Sequence record: NC_070872.1
Direction: 5' to 3' (one strand)
Length of the DNA: 64,000 nucleotides
Source of the DNA: Escherichia phage U1G
The notes beneath the pieces are model-generated. The model was not told where the DNA came from. It saw nothing but the letters and a program-made list of their open reading frames with translations, and did no database searches. Both the position numbers and the translations under genes were made by a program. Shown piece after piece: positions 9,882 through 46,300 of the stretch (positions within the stretch are counted from its first letter, which is position 1; each line of letters begins with the position of its first letter).

Positions 9882-10195
9882 ATGGCGAGCATTGACTCAC
9901 TGACCGTATGTAATACACGTCAGGCCCGTAACTTTATTATCCGTGCCCTGCAAGCAGGTAACGTACCGTTCCTGACTTCATCACCAGGCATGGGTAAATC
10001 TGCAATTATTCGTTCTGTTGCAGAAGAATTTGGTATGAAGCTGATAGACCATCGTCTGTCTACTTCTGCCCCAGAAGACTTGTCAGGCCTACCATTCCGT
10101 AATGGTGACCATGCAGAGTTTATTCCTTTCGCTGATTTATTCCCTATTGAAGGGGATGAAATACCAGAAGGGTATAATGGTTGGCTCTTGTTCCT
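9882..10195 (+). CDS. MoxR-like AAA+ ATPase, exon 1
   Basis: Walker A SSPGMGKS; reading ends ...GWLLFL at predicted 5' splice site; frame stops 2 codons later inside the intron. Confidence 0.65.
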
Positions 10196-11077
10196 TAACT
10201 AACGGGGCTTCATGAGAGTAATCTCATGTCGAAAGTTACCTAAACAGGGAACCTCTTCTAATCTGGTTGGCTCAGGTGTATACTTGAGTTTTAATCAATT
10301 GGAGACAATCCTGTGCTAAATAATGAAATTTGGAAAGATGTGCCCGACTTACCGTATGAAGTTTCCAACTTTGGCGTAGTACGCCGAAAAGAAGGAAAGT
10401 ATAAATACAAAAATAGGACACACATAAAACCGTATCTTAATAACAAAGGGTACTACTGCGTGAACCTGTACATGAATAGTAAAGTGTACAAATACCAAGT
10501 TCACCGTCTAGTAGGGTTAGCCTTTGTACCAAACCCTAATAACTATCCTATCGTTAATCATATAGATGGAAACCCTCTTAATAACCACGAGAGTAACCTG
10601 GAATGGTGTACCCAGTCTCACAACATGAAACATGCTTGGGATACTGGACTGCAATCAAACAGGCACGCTAATGCTAGTAATAAGAATCGTGGAGGCTCAT
10701 CCAAATACGTAGGTGTATCCTGGAGTGAGCAAAGACAAAGATGGTGTGCCCATATAAGGGTTAACAAGAAATCTATTGGTTTGGGGCGTTACAAAACAGA
10801 GGAAGAAGCTGCCAAAGCCTATGACTCCTATGTAACTAATAACAATCTTATACAGATTGGATACAGTACCAATTTCATTTAAACGCCAAACGACTATCGA
10901 AAACACGCAGCAATGCGGAAGTGAGTAGAGTAGGGTGCAAGCCAATGGCACTCGAAACGGTAACAGCCCTAGTAATAGGGCTTTGATATAGTCTCCTCTG
11001 CATGGTGACATGCAGCAGTCAGTATTCACTGAGTGTACTGACGGCATTAGTAGTTGCGAACTAATGTGAAGATAATG
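10196..11077 (+). mobile_element. group I intron (td-like, subgroup IA2) carrying an HNH endonuclease ORF
   Basis: 5' region CTAAACAGGGAACCTCT...GACAATCCTGTGCTAAAT and 3' core GAGTAGGGTGCAAG...CTCGAAACGG...GATATAGTCTCCTCTGCATGGTGACATGCAGC closely match the T4 td intron as recalled; ends ...GATAATG (terminal G); splice boundaries +/- a few nt. Confidence 0.7.
10313..10882 (+). CDS. intron-encoded HNH homing endonuclease (GTG start)
   Basis: HRLVGLAFVPNP...VNHIDGNPLNNHESNLEWCTQSHN HNH motif, C-terminal AP2-like YVGVSW...WCAHIRVNKKSIGLGRYKTEEEAAKAY; GGAG 8 nt upstream of GTG. Confidence 0.8.
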   Translation: MLNNEIWKDVPDLPYEVSNFGVVRRKEGKYKYKNRTHIKPYLNNKGYYCVNLYMNSKVYKYQVHRLVGLAFVPNPNNYPIVNHIDGNPLNNHESNLEWCTQSHNMKHAWDTGLQSNRHANASNKNRGGSSKYVGVSWSEQRQRWCAHIRVNKKSIGLGRYKTEEEAAKAYDSYVTNNNLIQIGYSTNFI

Positions 11078-11816
11078 CGATGAGTTCAACTCAGCCAGAA
11101 AAGAAGTAGTAGCTGCTGCATATAAACTCATACTAGACCGTATGACTGGTCAGAAAAAACTTCATCCTAATGTGATGATTATATGTGCTGGTAACAAAGC
11201 TACTGACCGAGCCATTGTTAACCCACTGGGTACTGCAATGCAGTCTCGTGTTGTCCACTTTGAAATGGAACTTAACTTCGACATCTTTGTTGAAGACGTG
11301 ATGATTCCATTTGAATGGGATGAGCGTCTGGTTGCATTCTTACATGCTAACCCGGGTTATCTGCATGACTTCGACCCAGCACATAAGAACAAAACGTTCT
11401 GTTGTCCCCGTACCTGGGACTTTGTTAACAAAGACCTCAAGAACCGTCCTGAAGGTGCTCTACCTGACGAAGATTCTATCTACTACGCAGGGCACGTTAC
11501 TGCTGGTAAGGCTACAGAGTTTGTTCAGTTTACACAGGTGTACAATCGTATGATTACGATTGAGAAGGTAGTCAAAGACCCTCTGGGCTGTGCACTACCG
11601 GAAGATAACAACCTGTGCTGGGCTACCGTTAACCATTTGGCTAATAAAACTACTGAAGAAAACTTCTCTGATGTTCTTCAGTACATTGAACGATTTAAAA
11701 CGTTCACTCATAAGATTCTGTACTTCCGTACAGTAGGCAGAGCATTGCCAGAACTTCAGGCTACCCCTGAATGGCGTAAGGCTGCTTCCAATATCTCTCG
11801 TTACATTCACGGATAA
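11078..11816 (+). CDS. MoxR-like AAA+ ATPase, exon 2
   Basis: Begins in-frame with DEFNSA (Walker B with exon 1: LLFLDEFNSA), then sensor-1-like IICAGN; spliced product ~350 aa. Confidence 0.65.
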
Positions 11817-11823
11817 TCACAAC

Positions 11824-12998
11824 ATGAACCAGATACCTCAGCACACACTTAGTGATGAACAACTCATGCGTGAGTATGACCGTATTCAGGCGCAGGCATT
11901 TCTCGGACGTAGTGCAGCATTTTTTGGTTCATTACTGTGTAGTCTTAAGTTCTCATGGAAACGTGAAGACTGCCCCACTGCATGTACTGATGGAATAGAA
12001 CTCCATTTCAACCCAGACTTCTTTATCTGGATGTGTCCAGATGCAAGAGAAACAGTGCTAATGCACGAACTCTGGCATGTGGCATATCTGCATGGCATCC
12101 GTCGTGGAAGCCGTGACCCAGAGGTCTGGAACCAGGCATGTGACCACTTCATTAATCTTCAGTTAGAAGAAGATGGATATAAGTTCACTGGTATCGACAA
12201 AGGCATTTGCAAAGACCCTCAATACAAAGGGTGGGTCGAAGAAGACATCTACGATGACCTGATGAAGAACCCTCAGAAAAGGCAGAAGCCGTCAGGGGTG
12301 CTGGAGCAGGTCTTGCTGGTGACATGAAATCTCCCACTTCGGGGCAGTCCCAGGGTGCTGTCGTCAACAACGTAGTACGAGCAATGCAGAGCCAGAAAAT
12401 GGCTGGTGGACAGATGCCCGGTAAGGGTGCTGGTCGTATGGAAGAGGTTATTACCCAATTCCTTAAACCAGTGGTTCCATGGCAGGAAGTCCTCATGAAC
12501 TTCTTTACCGACATTGACGATACTCATTATACGTGGGCCAGACCTAACCGTCGTTTTACTGACATCTATCTACCTTCCATGGAAGATGATGAAGGACGCT
12601 TACGACACTTAGCCTACTTTGAAGATGTATCTGGTTCTATTAGTAGTGCAGATTCTCTGCGATTTAACTCAGAGGTTGCCTACGTTAAGAGCCAGTTCAA
12701 TCCTAAGAAGATGTCCCTAATTACCTTCGACGATATTATTCAAGAAGAGATAGACATCACTGAAGAAGATACTTTTGAAGAGATTAAGATTACTGGTCGT
12801 GGTGGTACAAACCTGGAACCAGTACGTGATTGGATTATTAAGAATAAGCCAACCGCTGCAATCATATTCTCTGATATGTATGTTCGTCCTATGGAAGAAT
12901 TACCATTTGATATTCCTATCATCTGGTGTGTTCTGAATAATCCCAATGCTACCGTACCTTTTGGGGAGGTAGTTCATATCCCTAAAGGAATGAAATAA
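11824..12998 (+). CDS. putative metallopeptidase + vWA-domain protein (DUF2201-like MoxR partner); two ORFs in this assembly
   Basis: HELWH (HExxH) in N-part; MIDAS-like DVSGSIS in C-part; the second frame is open from 12258 with a Gly-rich linker; +1 nt at A4 (12277-12280) or G4 (12295-12298) fuses the ORFs. Confidence 0.5.
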
Positions 12999-24627: not shown

Positions 24628-26442
24628 ATGCGTTACATCACCTCTCAGGATACTGGTAAGTATCCTATTGCTATCCTCGGTCATCAAATCCGAAGGGAGG
24701 AGATGATTAAAACCTATCTGCTGCCTTATGACCTAAGTATGGAAGACTTCATCTTTATTGAACTTCATTCTGCCCCCGGCAAGAAAACTCCTGCAAGAGA
24801 GATTAAGGAGTTCATACAGCAGGAACTGCAACAAGTACTGGATGATGCAGAGACTCAATACATTATCTGTACCGATTCTGACTACTTCAAAATACTGACT
24901 AAAGAAGCTAAAGCAGAGGCTAACCTCGGCTATGTTTGTGACTCAGTATGGGGTAAGCAGAAGGTTATCTATGCACCTAGCTACAGACAGGTCTTTTATG
25001 ACCCTCCTGTAGTGAAATCCAAGATTGCTCAGGGTATGGATGCATTACTTAACCACATACGTGGGCAGTATGCTGAACCAGGTCAAGGAATCATTGAGTT
25101 TGAAGCCTATCCGGATACTCCCGAGAAGATTAAAGCCTGGCTAGACCAGTTGCTTGAGATGAATAAGCCATTGGCTATAGACATCGAAGCATTCGGTTTA
25201 AAGCACTATAACGCCGGTATAGGGACAATTACATTCTGTTGGAGTAAAACACAAGGCATAGCCTTTAACGTGGACTACGAGCCGATTCCTGGAGCTACTG
25301 AAGCACCATACGGGCGTATCAACCGTAATGATATTGTTCGAAACCTTCTGCGTGAGTTCTTCATTAAGTACACCCAACGGCAGATGTATCACAACATTAG
25401 CTATGATGTGTACATACTTATCTATCAGTTATTCATGGATAATCTGATTGATACAGAGGGACTACTACATGGCATGGACATCATGCTGCGTAATTGGGAC
25501 TGTACTAAGTTAATCACCTATCTGGCTACTAACAGTTGTGCAGGCAATCATCTTAGTCTAAAAGAGCAGGCTCAGGAGTATGCTGGTAACTATGCTCAGG
25601 ATGATATCAAAGACATACGTCTTATTCCTAATGAGCAACTGTTACGCTACAACCTCATTGATGGTTTGTGTACTTGGTACACATACGAGAAGCACTGGGA
25701 TACTCTCATTGCCGATGACCAACTTGATGTTTACAACAGCATCTTTAAACCAGCCTGTGAAGACATTATTCAGATGCAGTTAACCGGTATGCCCATGAAT
25801 ATGGAAACCGTTAACCAAGTAGCTGAAGAAATGGAAACTGACAGGAACCAGGCTCTGAAAACTATTCGTGAGTCTAACCTCATGAAGAACTTTACCCTGA
25901 TGCTTCGTCAGGAATGGGTAGACGATAAGAATGCTAAGCTTAAGAAGAAGCAGGTAACACTAGCTGATTGTGACATTGAGTTTAATCCTAACTCTGGCCC
26001 ACAACTACAGAAGCTGTTATTTGACTATATCGGCTTACCGGTTCTTGGTCTTACTAAGAGCAAGCAACCTGCTACTGACGGTGACACTATTAAAGCACTG
26101 CGTACACATACGCAGAGTGAAGATGTTAAGGAACTGCTCAATGCACTTATCGACTATAAGCTCGTGGATAAGATTATCACTAGCTTTATACCAGCTTTCA
26201 GGAATGCCCAACCGGGACCAGATGGCTGGCACTACCTGTTCGGTAACCTCAATCTGGGAGGCACAGTCTCCGGTAGGTTATCGGCTTCAGAGCCAAATCT
26301 ACAAACAATTCCATCCGGCTCTAAATATGCCAAGAAGATTAAGAAATGCTTCGAAGCTCCACCTAGTTGTTACTTGCCAAACAGGACCAAGCTGGATACA
26401 TTAATCCAGTCCCTGAAAAATACAATTAGTGGTGCCAAATGA
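24628..26442 (+). CDS. family A DNA polymerase, N-terminal fragment (3'-5' exonuclease plus part of polymerase domain)
   Basis: Exo I AIDIEAFGL; GTVSGRLSASEPNLQTIP and KKCFEAPP just before the break. Confidence 0.75.
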   Translation: MRYITSQDTGKYPIAILGHQIRREEMIKTYLLPYDLSMEDFIFIELHSAPGKKTPAREIKEFIQQELQQVLDDAETQYIICTDSDYFKILTKEAKAEANLGYVCDSVWGKQKVIYAPSYRQVFYDPPVVKSKIAQGMDALLNHIRGQYAEPGQGIIEFEAYPDTPEKIKAWLDQLLEMNKPLAIDIEAFGLKHYNAGIGTITFCWSKTQGIAFNVDYEPIPGATEAPYGRINRNDIVRNLLREFFIKYTQRQMYHNISYDVYILIYQLFMDNLIDTEGLLHGMDIMLRNWDCTKLITYLATNSCAGNHLSLKEQAQEYAGNYAQDDIKDIRLIPNEQLLRYNLIDGLCTWYTYEKHWDTLIADDQLDVYNSIFKPACEDIIQMQLTGMPMNMETVNQVAEEMETDRNQALKTIRESNLMKNFTLMLRQEWVDDKNAKLKKKQVTLADCDIEFNPNSGPQLQKLLFDYIGLPVLGLTKSKQPATDGDTIKALRTHTQSEDVKELLNALIDYKLVDKIITSFIPAFRNAQPGPDGWHYLFGNLNLGGTVSGRLSASEPNLQTIPSGSKYAKKIKKCFEAPPSCYLPNRTKLDTLIQSLKNTISGAK

Positions 26443-27095
26443 TAGGAAAGAAATTTAATAGATTGACTGTAGTCAGGTTCAGTCACAAAGACAAATACTA
26501 TGCAAAGCATTGGGAATGCCTTTGTGACTGTGGGAATACTACTATAGTCAACAATCAAAAATTAAAGAGTGGTCATACAAGAAGTTGTGGATGTTTACAC
26601 AAAGAATGCCTACGTAACTATAAAGATGGTCGTTCTAAGGAACTACTATATAAGGTTTACTACGGCATCCTTGACCGCTGCCATAATGAAAAGTGTTCCA
26701 CTTATTACAAATATGGGGCTAAGGGCATAAGTGTTTGCGATGAGTGGAAAAATTCATACGAAACTTTCCGAGATTGGGCATTATCTTCTGGTTATGCAGC
26801 AGGTCTTAGTATCGACAGGATTGATGCCTATAAAGGATATTCTCCAGACAACTGTAGATGGGCAAATAGAAGTACCCAACAAACTAACAAAAGGGTTTGG
26901 AGTACAACTCCTTACGTTAGCTACAGTAAGTCAAAAAATAAATGGGTAGGTAGAATTACCCATTTGGGTAAGAGAATAGAAATCCGGGTAGATAGAGATC
27001 TAGATACTGTTATGAATGCAGTTATTGCTTATGTATTAGCTAATAACTTGGTTGAACAGGAGAAGGTACTTCGTAATGCAGGACTTATTAAATAA
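26439..27095 (+). CDS. free-standing homing endonuclease-like ORF (Zn-ribbon plus AP2-like domain) inserted in the DNA polymerase gene
   Basis: FNRLTVV...WECLCDCGNTTIV...GHTRSCGC pattern, C-terminal NKWVGRITHLGKRIEIRV; ATGA overlap with the polymerase N-fragment stop; different frame from both polymerase parts. Confidence 0.6.
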   Translation: MIGKKFNRLTVVRFSHKDKYYAKHWECLCDCGNTTIVNNQKLKSGHTRSCGCLHKECLRNYKDGRSKELLYKVYYGILDRCHNEKCSTYYKYGAKGISVCDEWKNSYETFRDWALSSGYAAGLSIDRIDAYKGYSPDNCRWANRSTQQTNKRVWSTTPYVSYSKSKNKWVGRITHLGKRIEIRVDRDLDTVMNAVIAYVLANNLVEQEKVLRNAGLIK

Positions 27096-28047
27096 ATTAG
27101 TTAGCATAAAGGATAGAGTAACCCTGGATGACTATGACGAGTTAATACAATTAGCTAGTAAATATGGCATGCAGGAACAAGTATCTGAATGCTTTGACTA
27201 TGAGGGTGGATGGTTGTTTTGTGGGCTAGACTTTGCGTCCTTAGAGGATCGCATATCAGCCCTAACAACCAAAGACCCTAATAAATTGCGTGTGTATACT
27301 GACGGGTTTGACGGTCATTCACTCAGAGCTAAATTTTATTTCGGTGAACAAATGCCGGATATTGATGACTCTGTAGAAAGCATCAACTCTATACAGAAAA
27401 AATATAAAGCCTTACGTAGCGAATCGAAAGCACCTACTTTCTTACTGACCTACGGCGGAACTTATATGGGCTTAATGAAAAACTGTGGCTTCTCGGAAGA
27501 GAAGGCTAAATTAATTGAGTCCAGATACCACGAAATGTATACGGTTAGTGATGCCTGGGTTCAGGCTAAGCTAGACGAAGCTGCTAAGACTGGTTATGTA
27601 ACTGCTGCATTTGGTTTGAGAGTGCGTACTCCTTTACTGGCTCAGGTTTTACGTGGGACATGTAAGACCCCATATGAAGCAGAAGCTGAAGGCAGGACTG
27701 CTGGTAATGCATTAGGTCAAAGCTGGTGTCTACTGAATAATCGTGCTGGCTCAGAGTTTATGCGTAAAGTCAGAACCAGTGAGTTCAGATTAGATATACG
27801 TCCTTGTATTCACATTCATGATGCCCAATACTTCATGATTCGTGACAACATGGATACCTTGCAGTACACGAACAAGCACTTGGTTGAAGCCGTTAACTGG
27901 CAAGACCATCCTGATATTGCTCATCCAGAAGTTGGTTTGGGTGGGGAACTATCCTTGTTTTACCCAACGTGGGCTAACGAGATTGAAATTCCAAATCACG
28001 CTACCCCAGATGAAGTTCATCAAATAATTCAAAAGGCATTCGCATGA
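27076..28047 (+). CDS. family A DNA polymerase, C-terminal fragment (palm/fingers)
   Basis: Motif A LDFASLEDRISAL, motif B KAPTFLLTYGGTYMG, motif C IHIHDAQYF; AGGAGAAGG upstream of ATG 27076 (longest ORF starts TTG 27052). Confidence 0.7.
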   Translation: MQDLLNKLVSIKDRVTLDDYDELIQLASKYGMQEQVSECFDYEGGWLFCGLDFASLEDRISALTTKDPNKLRVYTDGFDGHSLRAKFYFGEQMPDIDDSVESINSIQKKYKALRSESKAPTFLLTYGGTYMGLMKNCGFSEEKAKLIESRYHEMYTVSDAWVQAKLDEAAKTGYVTAAFGLRVRTPLLAQVLRGTCKTPYEAEAEGRTAGNALGQSWCLLNNRAGSEFMRKVRTSEFRLDIRPCIHIHDAQYFMIRDNMDTLQYTNKHLVEAVNWQDHPDIAHPEVGLGGELSLFYPTWANEIEIPNHATPDEVHQIIQKAFA

Positions 28048-43300: not shown

Positions 43301-46300
43301 TCAGATTACCTTCCAGAGCTTTAGTCAGCTTTTCAGACATAGCTTCACGGGACATGTTATGTACCTTGATACCTAATGCCTGAGCCAGACCTAACTGGAA
43401 GTCAGAGAATGTTTGGCTGTTTTCATTACTCAAGTCAATAGTAGAGAAGGTTGGCAGAATTGCTTCACGAACCAGTTTACTGGATTGTGGATTGTTCTTA
43501 CCTAACATCTGCATACGACCTACACGGGTCATGTTGTAACCATAGTGAATAGGCGTATCCAGACCATTCTCCTGTTCCTGTAATTGATTGATTACACCAA
43601 ACAAAGAGTCATATGCCATAGACACTGACAGGTTCTTACCTTCCAGTGATTTAGCAGTATTCACGTTCAGCAGTTCAGGATTAAGAGTACCAGCACCCAT
43701 CAGTTCCAGAATGTTGTCACGACCTAATGCTTCATAGAAGTTAACCATCGGCATGTGTACACGGAACTCGGTAGCCTGTTCTGCTTTAAGAGCAGCTTTC
43801 TGCTCTGGGGTATTCTTAACAGCAGGGTTACGTAACTGAGTTTGAGCCACGGAAGGAATATCATCACCAAAGTACATTTTCTCTTCTGGTTCTACGAGAA
43901 CAGCTTCCTCGATAGCAGTAGGGAACTTGTTAATGGCATCGTTATCGTCCAGCTTCTCAATAGTATATAGACCAATAGTCTTATTGGAGTCTGGGTCAAT
44001 CTCAGACACATCAAGCATAGATTCTTTAACTTCACCCATCTCAATGAGAGAAGACAGAATCTCTGTAGCCATTGCCATTGGAATACCTTTGGTATAACCC
44101 AGTGGTGCATTTGGATTACGGTCCAAACCCCAGTAAGATTCAATCTTTTGAGCCAGTGAGTTAGTAGCTTCAACCAGAGTCTGAGCATTCTCGAATTCAG
44201 CCAGAATACCTTCTGGTAACAGAGATGCTTCTACACCAGTAATAGCAGCTACGTCTTTCATATCTTTAACAGCAGCATTCTGTGTAGCAGTCAGTCGCCA
44301 TTGCAGACCAGCAAGTACAGCAGTTTCTAACAACTGGTCATTAAACTTAAAGGTATCCCCATCTTTCTCTACGATGTTAAGTAACTTACCACCTACCCAA
44401 CGGTTAGCTTCAGTACCTTCTGCAAAACGTTTACCTACGTTCTTATTAGCAAGGAACTTAGCCAGACGGTCAGACAAAGTAGTCTTCAGAGTTTCGCCAA
44501 AATCAAATAAGTCCTGATAACGCTTAATCACATCACTTGTGAGAGCGTTATTTTCTTTTTGAGTGAATGCTTCAAAGCGAGCAGCAGAAGACAGTGCTTT
44601 CTTAACATCAGTCAAAGGGGATTCAGAACCAATGGTTCGAGACTTAGATTCTTCCGGCAGAGTAAATGCCTTAAGGAACTGGTTCGGTGTCTTGTCATTG
44701 TTATAGACAGGGAACACTGTTTCCATTTGAGATAGGGGTTTACCACCAACGGTATAGTCTGCTTTCAGTTGAGCCAGAGATACCTCTATCTTCTCAACGT
44801 TATTGGTATTACGCCCAGACGTATCTACACCTATTTGAATCAGTGCATTGTTTGCTTCTACGAATGATTGAACAGTATTGAATTGTTCAGGAGTCAGCTT
44901 CTGATTATCAAACAGTTGCAATGATACAAACGGTTGTTCACTGCCTTTATAGAAGGTAGAGCGAATAGCACCAGTATCTAATGACATATCACGATAACCA
45001 TCATGACCAAATACGTCCGACAAGCTAATGTGGTCACCATTAGAGCCAACAACAGTACCGTCAGCAAAGAGCCAAGGACTCTCTTTACGATCACCATACT
45101 TATTAAGAGTATCTTGAGAAATAGTATTCTCTTTTACATAAGCATCTCTTTCAGATTCAGTAGACTGTACATCAGTATCCTGTTTTTCAGACTGGTTCTC
45201 AGGCTCTTTTACAGACTGTGGTTTAGACTCTTTAATAGTAGATTCTGTTTTAACAGCTTCACTAACAGAGGGTTTAGTCTGTACAGTAGAGGTAACTGGT
45301 TCCTGTTTCATAACAGGAGTTTCATCAACCTGATTCACTGGTTCATTGGTCTGTTGAGACTGAGTGGCATCAAGACCACCTTGACGGAACTCTTTAACTA
45401 CCTGGGCAGCAGGCTTGTCCAGACGTGAATCCAATGGGGTAACTTTCACATGAGAAACATTAAGCTCCGGGTAAGCCGTAGCAAGTGCATTAGCAATATC
45501 AGCTACGGTCTTGGCCTCCAGTCCTACTTGCTGGGCAAACTTAACAGACTTGGTATCATACGGATTGACACCGAGGCCAGTACGACTACGTACCCATTCA
45601 CGGGAAGGAGTAAGAGCCTGATAATGGACAGACTTATTCTTATCCGCATTCCCAGAAATCAGATGCTCATTCAACGCTCCGACCTTATTCTGCATGTGCT
45701 GGGCGAACTTCATAAAGTCGTCGAGATAAGCGGAAGCCAAATCGAAGTTACCAGAGTTGTACGCAGAACGAATGCGTTTAGCATGTTGCAACGCAGAGTA
45801 CTGACCTTCATTAGAACGAGACTCGTCGGTTTTAATTTGTTTACTAACAATATCTTGAGGACGTAAGCCTAATTCTTCTGCTTTAGCGTCGAATTCACGT
45901 GCACCCTGTAACAAGGCAGCAGCCGATTGCAGGGCAGCACGTTGTCTATTCCCCAGTGTAATCTTACCTTCACTTGCATGTTTCAGAACCATGTTCACTG
46001 AATCTGCATCCAGTACTTCTGGAGACATATCAGCAGCCATAGCAATGTTGTTTGCTTGGGTTTGGTTAGCTTCTTCAGTAGCTTTCAGTTTACCCGCTTC
46101 AGCCTGCTCCTGAATCATGGAATGAATGGCACGGAATGCACGAAGTACCTTCGGTGTATTCTGAACGTTAGCCATCAGGCCAGAGAACTGGTCAACAATA
46201 TTAGCAGCATGAGAACCTTGTTCCAGGTTAGCCAGAGCACCTGGGTCACGGTTAATGAAGCTATCCATAGACATGATATTGTCATACATCTGGATTGCAG

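Follow-up and report, generated by a model that had tools for sequence, protein, structure and literature searches.

The gene for the two-domain protein gp25 of Escherichia phage U1G appears in the deposited genome as two overlapping open reading frames, ORF1 and ORF2, which on the evidence of their sequence are two halves of one gene, and this split almost certainly arose in base calling or assembly and is not a biological feature. In the real phage, gp25 is very probably a single protein of 391 amino acids, as it is in nearly all relatives. The origin of the split would be a homopolymer of five guanines at 12295-12298 that was under-called as four in the nanopore-only Canu assembly; the lost base would shift the reading frame after codon 158, so that gene callers return one ORF of 167 amino acids and a second of 224. 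The analysis covers a window of 64,000 nucleotides of the U1G record NC_070872.1, to which all positions refer, and the coordinates of the features are collected in Table 1.

Table 1. Coordinates of gp24, gp25 and the one-nucleotide deletions in the U1G window
Feature	Position	Strand	Remarks
gp24 AAA+ ATPase, exon 1	9882..10196	+	Walker A GMGKS; ends ...LLFL
Group-I-like intron, 882 nt	10197..11078	+	within the gp24 Walker B motif
Homing-endonuclease ORF in the intron	10313..10882	+	NUMOD4 + HNH_3 + AP2
gp24 AAA+ ATPase, exon 2	11079..11816	+	begins DEFN...
Whole gp25 gene (orthologue of N4/G7C gp25)	11824..12998	+	1175 nt here vs 1176 nt in intact relatives
Repaired gp25 (one G added)			391 aa: zincin-like HExxH domain, linker, VWA-like domain
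ORF1, N-terminal fragment, 167 aa	11824..12327	+	QXV71862.1 / YP_010659786.1
HELWH (HExxH) motif	12064..12078	+	in ORF1
ORF2 frame open upstream of its ATG	12258..12323	+	authentic Gly-rich linker GAGAGLAGD encoded from 12298
G4 run, site of the missing base	12295..12298	+	G5 in PGN829.1 and pSb-1, G6 in G7C
ORF2, C-terminal fragment, 224 aa	12324..12998	+	QXV71863.1 / YP_010659787.1; end of DUF2201_N and DUF2201 VWA-like domain
MIDAS motif D-V-S-G-S	12624..12638	+	D268, S270, S272 of the repaired protein
CDS deletion, gp25	12299
CDS deletion, hypothetical gene	14374
CDS deletion, gp36	22222
CDS deletion, gp44	32821
CDS deletion, SSB gp45	33300
CDS deletion, gp47.2	35373
CDS deletion, virion protein gp51	49902
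CDS deletion, endolysin	61004
CDS deletions, one tail spike, twice	62495, 63519
Intergenic 1-nt deletions vs PGN829.1 and/or G7C	7294, 14135, 15980, 30215, 35567, 61326

Two reading frames of one gene

ORF1 and ORF2 are exactly identical to two annotated U1G proteins and both lie on a single 73,275-bp contig, where the ORF1 stop codon overlaps the ORF2 ATG in an ATGA at 12324-12327. Residues 1-158 of ORF1 are authentic, and the final nine (VLEQVLLVT) are out-of-frame read-through. Ahead of the ORF2 ATG, the open frame translates to ...RGAGAGLAGD, the Gly-rich linker of intact homologues (SGGAGAGLAGDMK), and the ATG itself corresponds to the internal Met168 of the intact protein, a residue also kept by relatives with an unshifted frame. 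The preliminary description of this region had the HExxH-bearing ORF ending at 12327 and the VWA frame open from 12258 with a Gly-rich linker, and each of these statements agrees with the sequence.

The Pfam matches join the two fragments. ORF1 matches positions 3-139 of the 271 of the DUF2201_N model (121.9 bits), and ORF2 matches positions 181-270 of the same model (61.8 bits) and then the whole DUF2201 VWA-like domain (118.5 bits); since the two ORFs cover consecutive parts of DUF2201_N, the break lies inside one Pfam domain model and not between two genes. When one G is added at 12295-12298, the resulting 391 amino acids give a continuous DUF2201_N match, with residues 17-253 aligned to model positions 3-270 at 192.3 bits, as well as a DUF2201 match of 116.2 bits, and both exceed their gathering scores (23.2 bits for PF13203 and 26.4 bits for PF09967). 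The earlier proposal of one DUF2201-type metallopeptidase and VWA protein of about 390 amino acids, cut by a one-nucleotide frameshift, is thus borne out by the Pfam scan of the fused protein and by the alignment of the relatives. As deposited, the sequence encodes 167 + 224 amino acids in place of a single chain of about 370-400 amino acids with both domains, which appears after the addition of one G, and this failure of the deposited sequence is attributed to a sequencing error.

Position of the missing base

In the alignment of the window with the relatives PGN829.1, G7C and pSb-1, the missing base falls in the G run, and the junction reads GTCAGGGGTGC in the window (G4), GTCAGGGGGTGC in PGN829.1 (G5) and GTCGGGGGGAGC in G7C (G6). 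The repair had originally been placed either in an A4 run (12277-12280) or in this G4 run, and the alignment selects the latter. The A4 run was rejected as a repair site: downstream of it the frame of ORF1 still gives the homologous QKRQKPSG, so nothing is missing there.

The frames overlap by 70 nt (12258-12327) and a -1 shift would join them, an arrangement that programmed recoding, by -1 ribosomal frameshifting or transcriptional slippage within the overlap, could use to produce the full-length protein. A search of the overlap for slippery sites, however, returned no X_XXY_YYZ heptamer, and runs of four guanines or four adenines lack the length at which polymerases slip efficiently. Nor do the relatives share the layout: 50 of 55 keep the frame here, the remaining five have their breaks elsewhere, and recoding retains a negligible probability.

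Relatives of gp25

A megablast search with the whole gene (11824-12998) returned 55 records of Gamaleyavirus (G7C-like, N4-like Schitoviridae), which are 93-96% identical apart from one at 60-80%, and nearly all of them span 1176 nt against 1175 nt in the window. Across the junction, assessed with a 141-nt probe, 50 of the 55 records carry one base more than the window, the run itself (G5 or G6) being read directly only in the three aligned relatives PGN829.1, pSb-1 and G7C. The other five (pSb-1 twice, Bp4 twice and Uz-1) are one base shorter than the window, and none of the 55 records has the junction length of the window as assessed with this probe. In G7C and PGN829.1, gp25 is annotated as one 1176-nt CDS between the gp24 ATPase and dCTP deaminase; the same gp24 - gp25 - dCTP deaminase synteny in the window, together with the high identity to G7C gp25, marks the split gene as an orthologue. 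At the protein level, the 90% cluster that holds ORF1 comprises 799 members, and the other members listed (n = 14) all measure 391 amino acids, while the best 120 homologue clusters (48-97% identity) are without exception single proteins of 368-403 amino acids with both PF13203 and PF09967. More distant homologues from roseophages, at 26% identity, have 388-393 amino acids (PMC2784036). The exact repaired 391-aa sequence is absent from a collection of 15 billion proteins, which thus holds no independent intact copy of this allele.

These comparisons also weigh on a genuine two-gene architecture, in which this lineage would produce the peptidase and the VWA protein as separate subunits. U1G is so annotated in both GenBank and RefSeq, and truncated C-terminal gp25 ORFs are listed for Bp4, Uz-1 and pSb-1 too. 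Nevertheless, one base in 1176 is all that separates the window from the single-gene form, the breaks of pSb-1 (two 1-nt deletions) lie at homopolymers other than the G4 of the window, and the junctions of Bp4 and Uz-1 differ in length from that of the window. With the break inside the DUF2201_N model and the best 120 homologue clusters all single-chain, the Pfam, alignment, cluster and junction-length evidence has effectively refuted the two-gene reading, which is left with hardly any probability. Because gp25 is broken in pSb-1, Bp4 and Uz-1 too, repeated natural loss of the gene was considered as well; it was rejected for pSb-1, where many essential genes are split and deletions likewise predominate.

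Domain architecture and predicted structure

The window encodes both the HExxH motif and the DxSxS...T...D residues of the MIDAS, and an alignment of 57 homologues shows that H81, E82 and H85 (HExxH) and D268, S270, S272, T329 and D351 (MIDAS) are invariant. The AlphaFold2 model of a homologue of 97% identity has a mean pLDDT of 81.5, with a confident N-domain (residues 1-150) and C-domain (260-390), and its residues 158-163, at the site of the break, form the linker of lowest confidence (pLDDT below 50), by which the inter-domain linker of gp25 is probably flexible. The predicted structure superposes on solved VWA domains, in support of a VWA fold for the C-domain. No solved structure matches the N-domain among the structural hits listed, the PDB sequence search with gp25 returned one chance match only (E = 0.69), and neither gp25 nor gp24 matches a model of NCBIfam.

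Homologues of gp25 bear the label 'HNH endonuclease' in RefSeq (e.g. YP_010659686.1, YP_010659786.1) and in the PHROG family phrog_1314. The Pfam search of gp25 identifies DUF2201_N and DUF2201 only, with no HNH domain, and the label is probably a propagated mis-annotation.

One-directional deletions across the genome

The U1G genome (MZ394712) was obtained with ONT MinION, SQK-LSK109, Guppy and Canu v1.8 at 39x coverage, and its source paper describes polishing only for two other phages and Illumina sequencing only for the host (PMC10754912). The phage had been triple plaque-purified and grown to 1e13 PFU/ml; in the published annotation, its 'tail spike' has 107 amino acids versus 628 in PGN829.1, and the virion RNA polymerase (vRNAP) was missed by RAST (PMC10754912). 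The 107-aa tail spike is consistent with the tail-spike frameshifts found here.

The translated comparison of all G7C ORFs of at least 90 amino acids with the window reveals frame changes in gp25, gp44, gp51 and gp36. At the nucleotide level, where isolated, non-triplet indels in a context of at least 85% identity were counted, the window differs from PGN829.1, its closest relative, by 15 indels, every one of which is a 1-nt deletion in the window, and 10 of these fall in PGN829.1 coding sequences. Most of the 15 shorten by one base a homopolymer that has 5-7 bases in PGN829.1; among the unsubstituted G/C 5-runs of PGN829.1 with conserved flanks (n = 20), 15 are kept and 5 are shortened, and both of the two unsubstituted 6-runs are shortened. 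Against G7C, the count is 14 deletions and 2 insertions. In the control pair formed by G7C and PGN829.1 there are 7 such indels, all intergenic by annotation coordinates. The deletion at 30215 sits in a CCTGG (Dcm) motif. Systematic homopolymer deletions are a known error mode of nanopore sequencing, and the Dcm motif is another known error context. The U1G record accordingly displays the marks of homopolymer under-calling, namely a long-read-only platform and deletions that run in one direction, break coding sequences and are absent from the control pair.

This pattern weighs against the main rival explanation, a real and recent frameshift in the U1G stock by replication slippage from G5 to G4, which would leave gp25 either as a null allele or as two polypeptides, with ORF2 translated through termination-reinitiation at the ATGA. 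A true slippage mutation of this kind would give an identical consensus, and homopolymers are natural mutation hot spots as well. Moreover, a Shine-Dalgarno-like GGTGA lies 2 nt before the ORF2 ATG (GGCGA in relatives) and, with the ATGA overlap, makes expression of ORF2 possible if the shift is real; in the model, furthermore, the cut coincides with the poorly predicted linker that connects two confident domains, a place at which a split might be tolerated. Yet the ORF2 ATG is simply the conserved Met168, kept in relatives without the frameshift, and gp25 belongs to the core genes, its catalytic and MIDAS residues invariant. The window has at least nine further CDS positions broken likewise, including those in SSB, gp51, the endolysin and the tail spike, although the phage plaques normally, and it was assembled from nanopore reads alone, for which no polishing is described. 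In pSb-1, whose gp25 is broken too, many essential genes are split, and deletions outnumber insertions by 20 to 4-5. Frameshifts in SSB, a virion protein, the endolysin and the tail spike together are incompatible with a lytic phage that forms plaques, which points to an artefact, and the genome-wide pattern of deletions speaks against singling out the gp25 site as a real mutation. A recent frameshift in the stock is therefore very unlikely, and the corresponding claim that U1G propagates with a core gp25 cut in its inter-domain linker is, if anything, slightly less likely still. Were the G4 real, the HExxH and VWA halves would act as two chains, by reinitiation at the ATGA, or gp25 would be dispensable on the laboratory host.

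The record of Shigella phage pSb-1 (NC_023589.1) divides the vRNAP among three CDSs and splits each of SSB, RNAP2, a tape-measure-like protein and gp25 into two, its indels having been counted versus G7C and PGN829.1; it is another low-accuracy reference genome.

The gp24 ATPase and its intron

The preliminary description also placed a MoxR-type ATPase upstream of gp25. An AAA+ ATPase, gp24, is indeed adjacent and precedes gp25, but a group-I-like intron with a homing endonuclease of the HNH type divides the gene. Spliced, the two exons encode an intact protein of 350 amino acids, equal in length to G7C gp24, to which the exon HSPs are 94% and 97% identical, and the product contains both the Walker A (GMGKS) and the Walker B (LLFLDE) motifs. 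The intron is inserted exactly between L and D of the latter (LLFL/DEFN), and its 3' end reads ...AATGC/GATGAG, with no terminal G as deposited. The Rfam model RF00028 matches it at 23.7 bits (E = 0.0046), which misses the gathering score, and at the gathering threshold Rfam returns nothing in the whole window. The gp24 genes of G7C and PGN829.1 are without the intron. A related HNH-carrying insertion is found in gp24 of pSb-1 (1270-2145), which is 78% identical to 149 nt in the core of the window's intron (10197-11078); its insertion site differs, being located at about nt 198-205 of gp24 versus nt 315 in the window.

The 'MoxR-type' part of the claim fares less well than the AAA+ assignment. 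Pfam AAA matches gp24 with 28.7 bits (cutoff 21.2), AAA_5 with 17.4 bits, below its cutoff of 22, and the PDB sequence matches consist of midasin AAA modules only, with a best E of 6.6e-5; membership of the MoxR class is at most plausible. The ATPase-VWA pair itself stands as originally described. Both genes belong to the set of 14 core genes shared by N4-like phages (PMC4193335, Table 3), and in N4 they are middle genes, annotated 'unknown' and 'vWFA domain' (PMC4193335, PMC2784036).

Other observations in the window

The DNA polymerase gp39 occupies two ORFs (24628..26442 and 27052..28047) with a 218-aa ORF (26439..27095) between them, which in the matching position of PGN829.1 is annotated as an HNH endonuclease; the split layout, shared with PGN829.1, is probably real, and an Rfam search of the DNA-polymerase insertion gave no intron match. 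On the minus strand, the virion RNA polymerase gp50 has about 150 amino acids fewer than that of G7C (residues 965-1116) at ~45182-45189, with the same frame on both sides. Between the gp42 exonuclease and the gp43 primase (~29200-30820), the window holds about 470 nt that are extra with respect to G7C and common to PGN829.1, where they are unannotated, and that include the deletion at 30215. ARAGORN detects no tRNA in the window; GGTTCAATTCC-TCCGG at ~36362 (within 35400-36600) looks like the T-arm of a tRNA and lacks one nucleotide that G7C has, and a tRNA near this position may be masked by a sequence error.

Significance

The value of these results is mainly one of curation. The U1G genome (MZ394712 and its RefSeq copy) has at least 10 frameshifted coding positions, its proteome is fragmented, and the deposited sequence is in need of polishing; the affected entries include YP_010659786.1, YP_010659787.1 and the published 107-aa 'tail spike', and pSb-1 shares the problem. 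With such frameshifts, U1G proteins are unfit as evidence for gene fission, for pseudogenes or for short receptor-binding proteins. The underlying biology, that of an AAA+ ATPase and an HExxH/VWA protein conserved as a pair in all N4-like phages, is an already recognised question to which nothing new is added here.

Comparison with known systems

As a protein, gp25 has the architecture of the DUF2201_N (PF13203, putative metallopeptidase) and DUF2201 (PF09967, VWA-like) proteins, which carry the JGI label 'predicted metal-dependent peptidase' and among which no member with a solved structure or tested function was found. Its closest counterparts are gp25 of G7C (YP_004782151.1) and of N4 (YP_950503.1), the 'vWFA domain' core gene of N4-like phages (Schitoviridae), which take the same slot between gp24 (ATPase) and gp26 (dCTP deaminase) and have the same two Pfam domains, HExxH and MIDAS. 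At 93-96% nucleotide identity to its Gamaleyavirus relatives, the U1G gene differs from these counterparts only by the missing G at 12295-12298 and by ordinary point differences.

Unpolished nanopore assemblies of the R9.4 era show the same strict deletion bias, the same loss of one base from runs of 5-7 and the same fragmented genes, and no feature sets the gp25 case of U1G apart from that class of error.

As for the pair, the characterised AAA+/VWA systems serve as an analogy (PMC7159879, PMC9976466). MoxR/midasin AAA+ proteins are paired with VWA (MIDAS) partners in RavA-ViaA, NorQ-NorD, CbbQ-CbbO, BchI-BchD and Rea1/midasin. By analogy with them, the VWA/MIDAS site of gp25 would likely capture an acidic residue or a peptide of a client protein, which the gp24 ring would remodel or release at the expense of ATP and which the HExxH domain may cleave, and this action would be placed in the middle phase of infection. 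The phage pair differs from these systems in that gp24 falls under the Pfam AAA_5 threshold and its VWA partner, gp25, has an extra HExxH domain.
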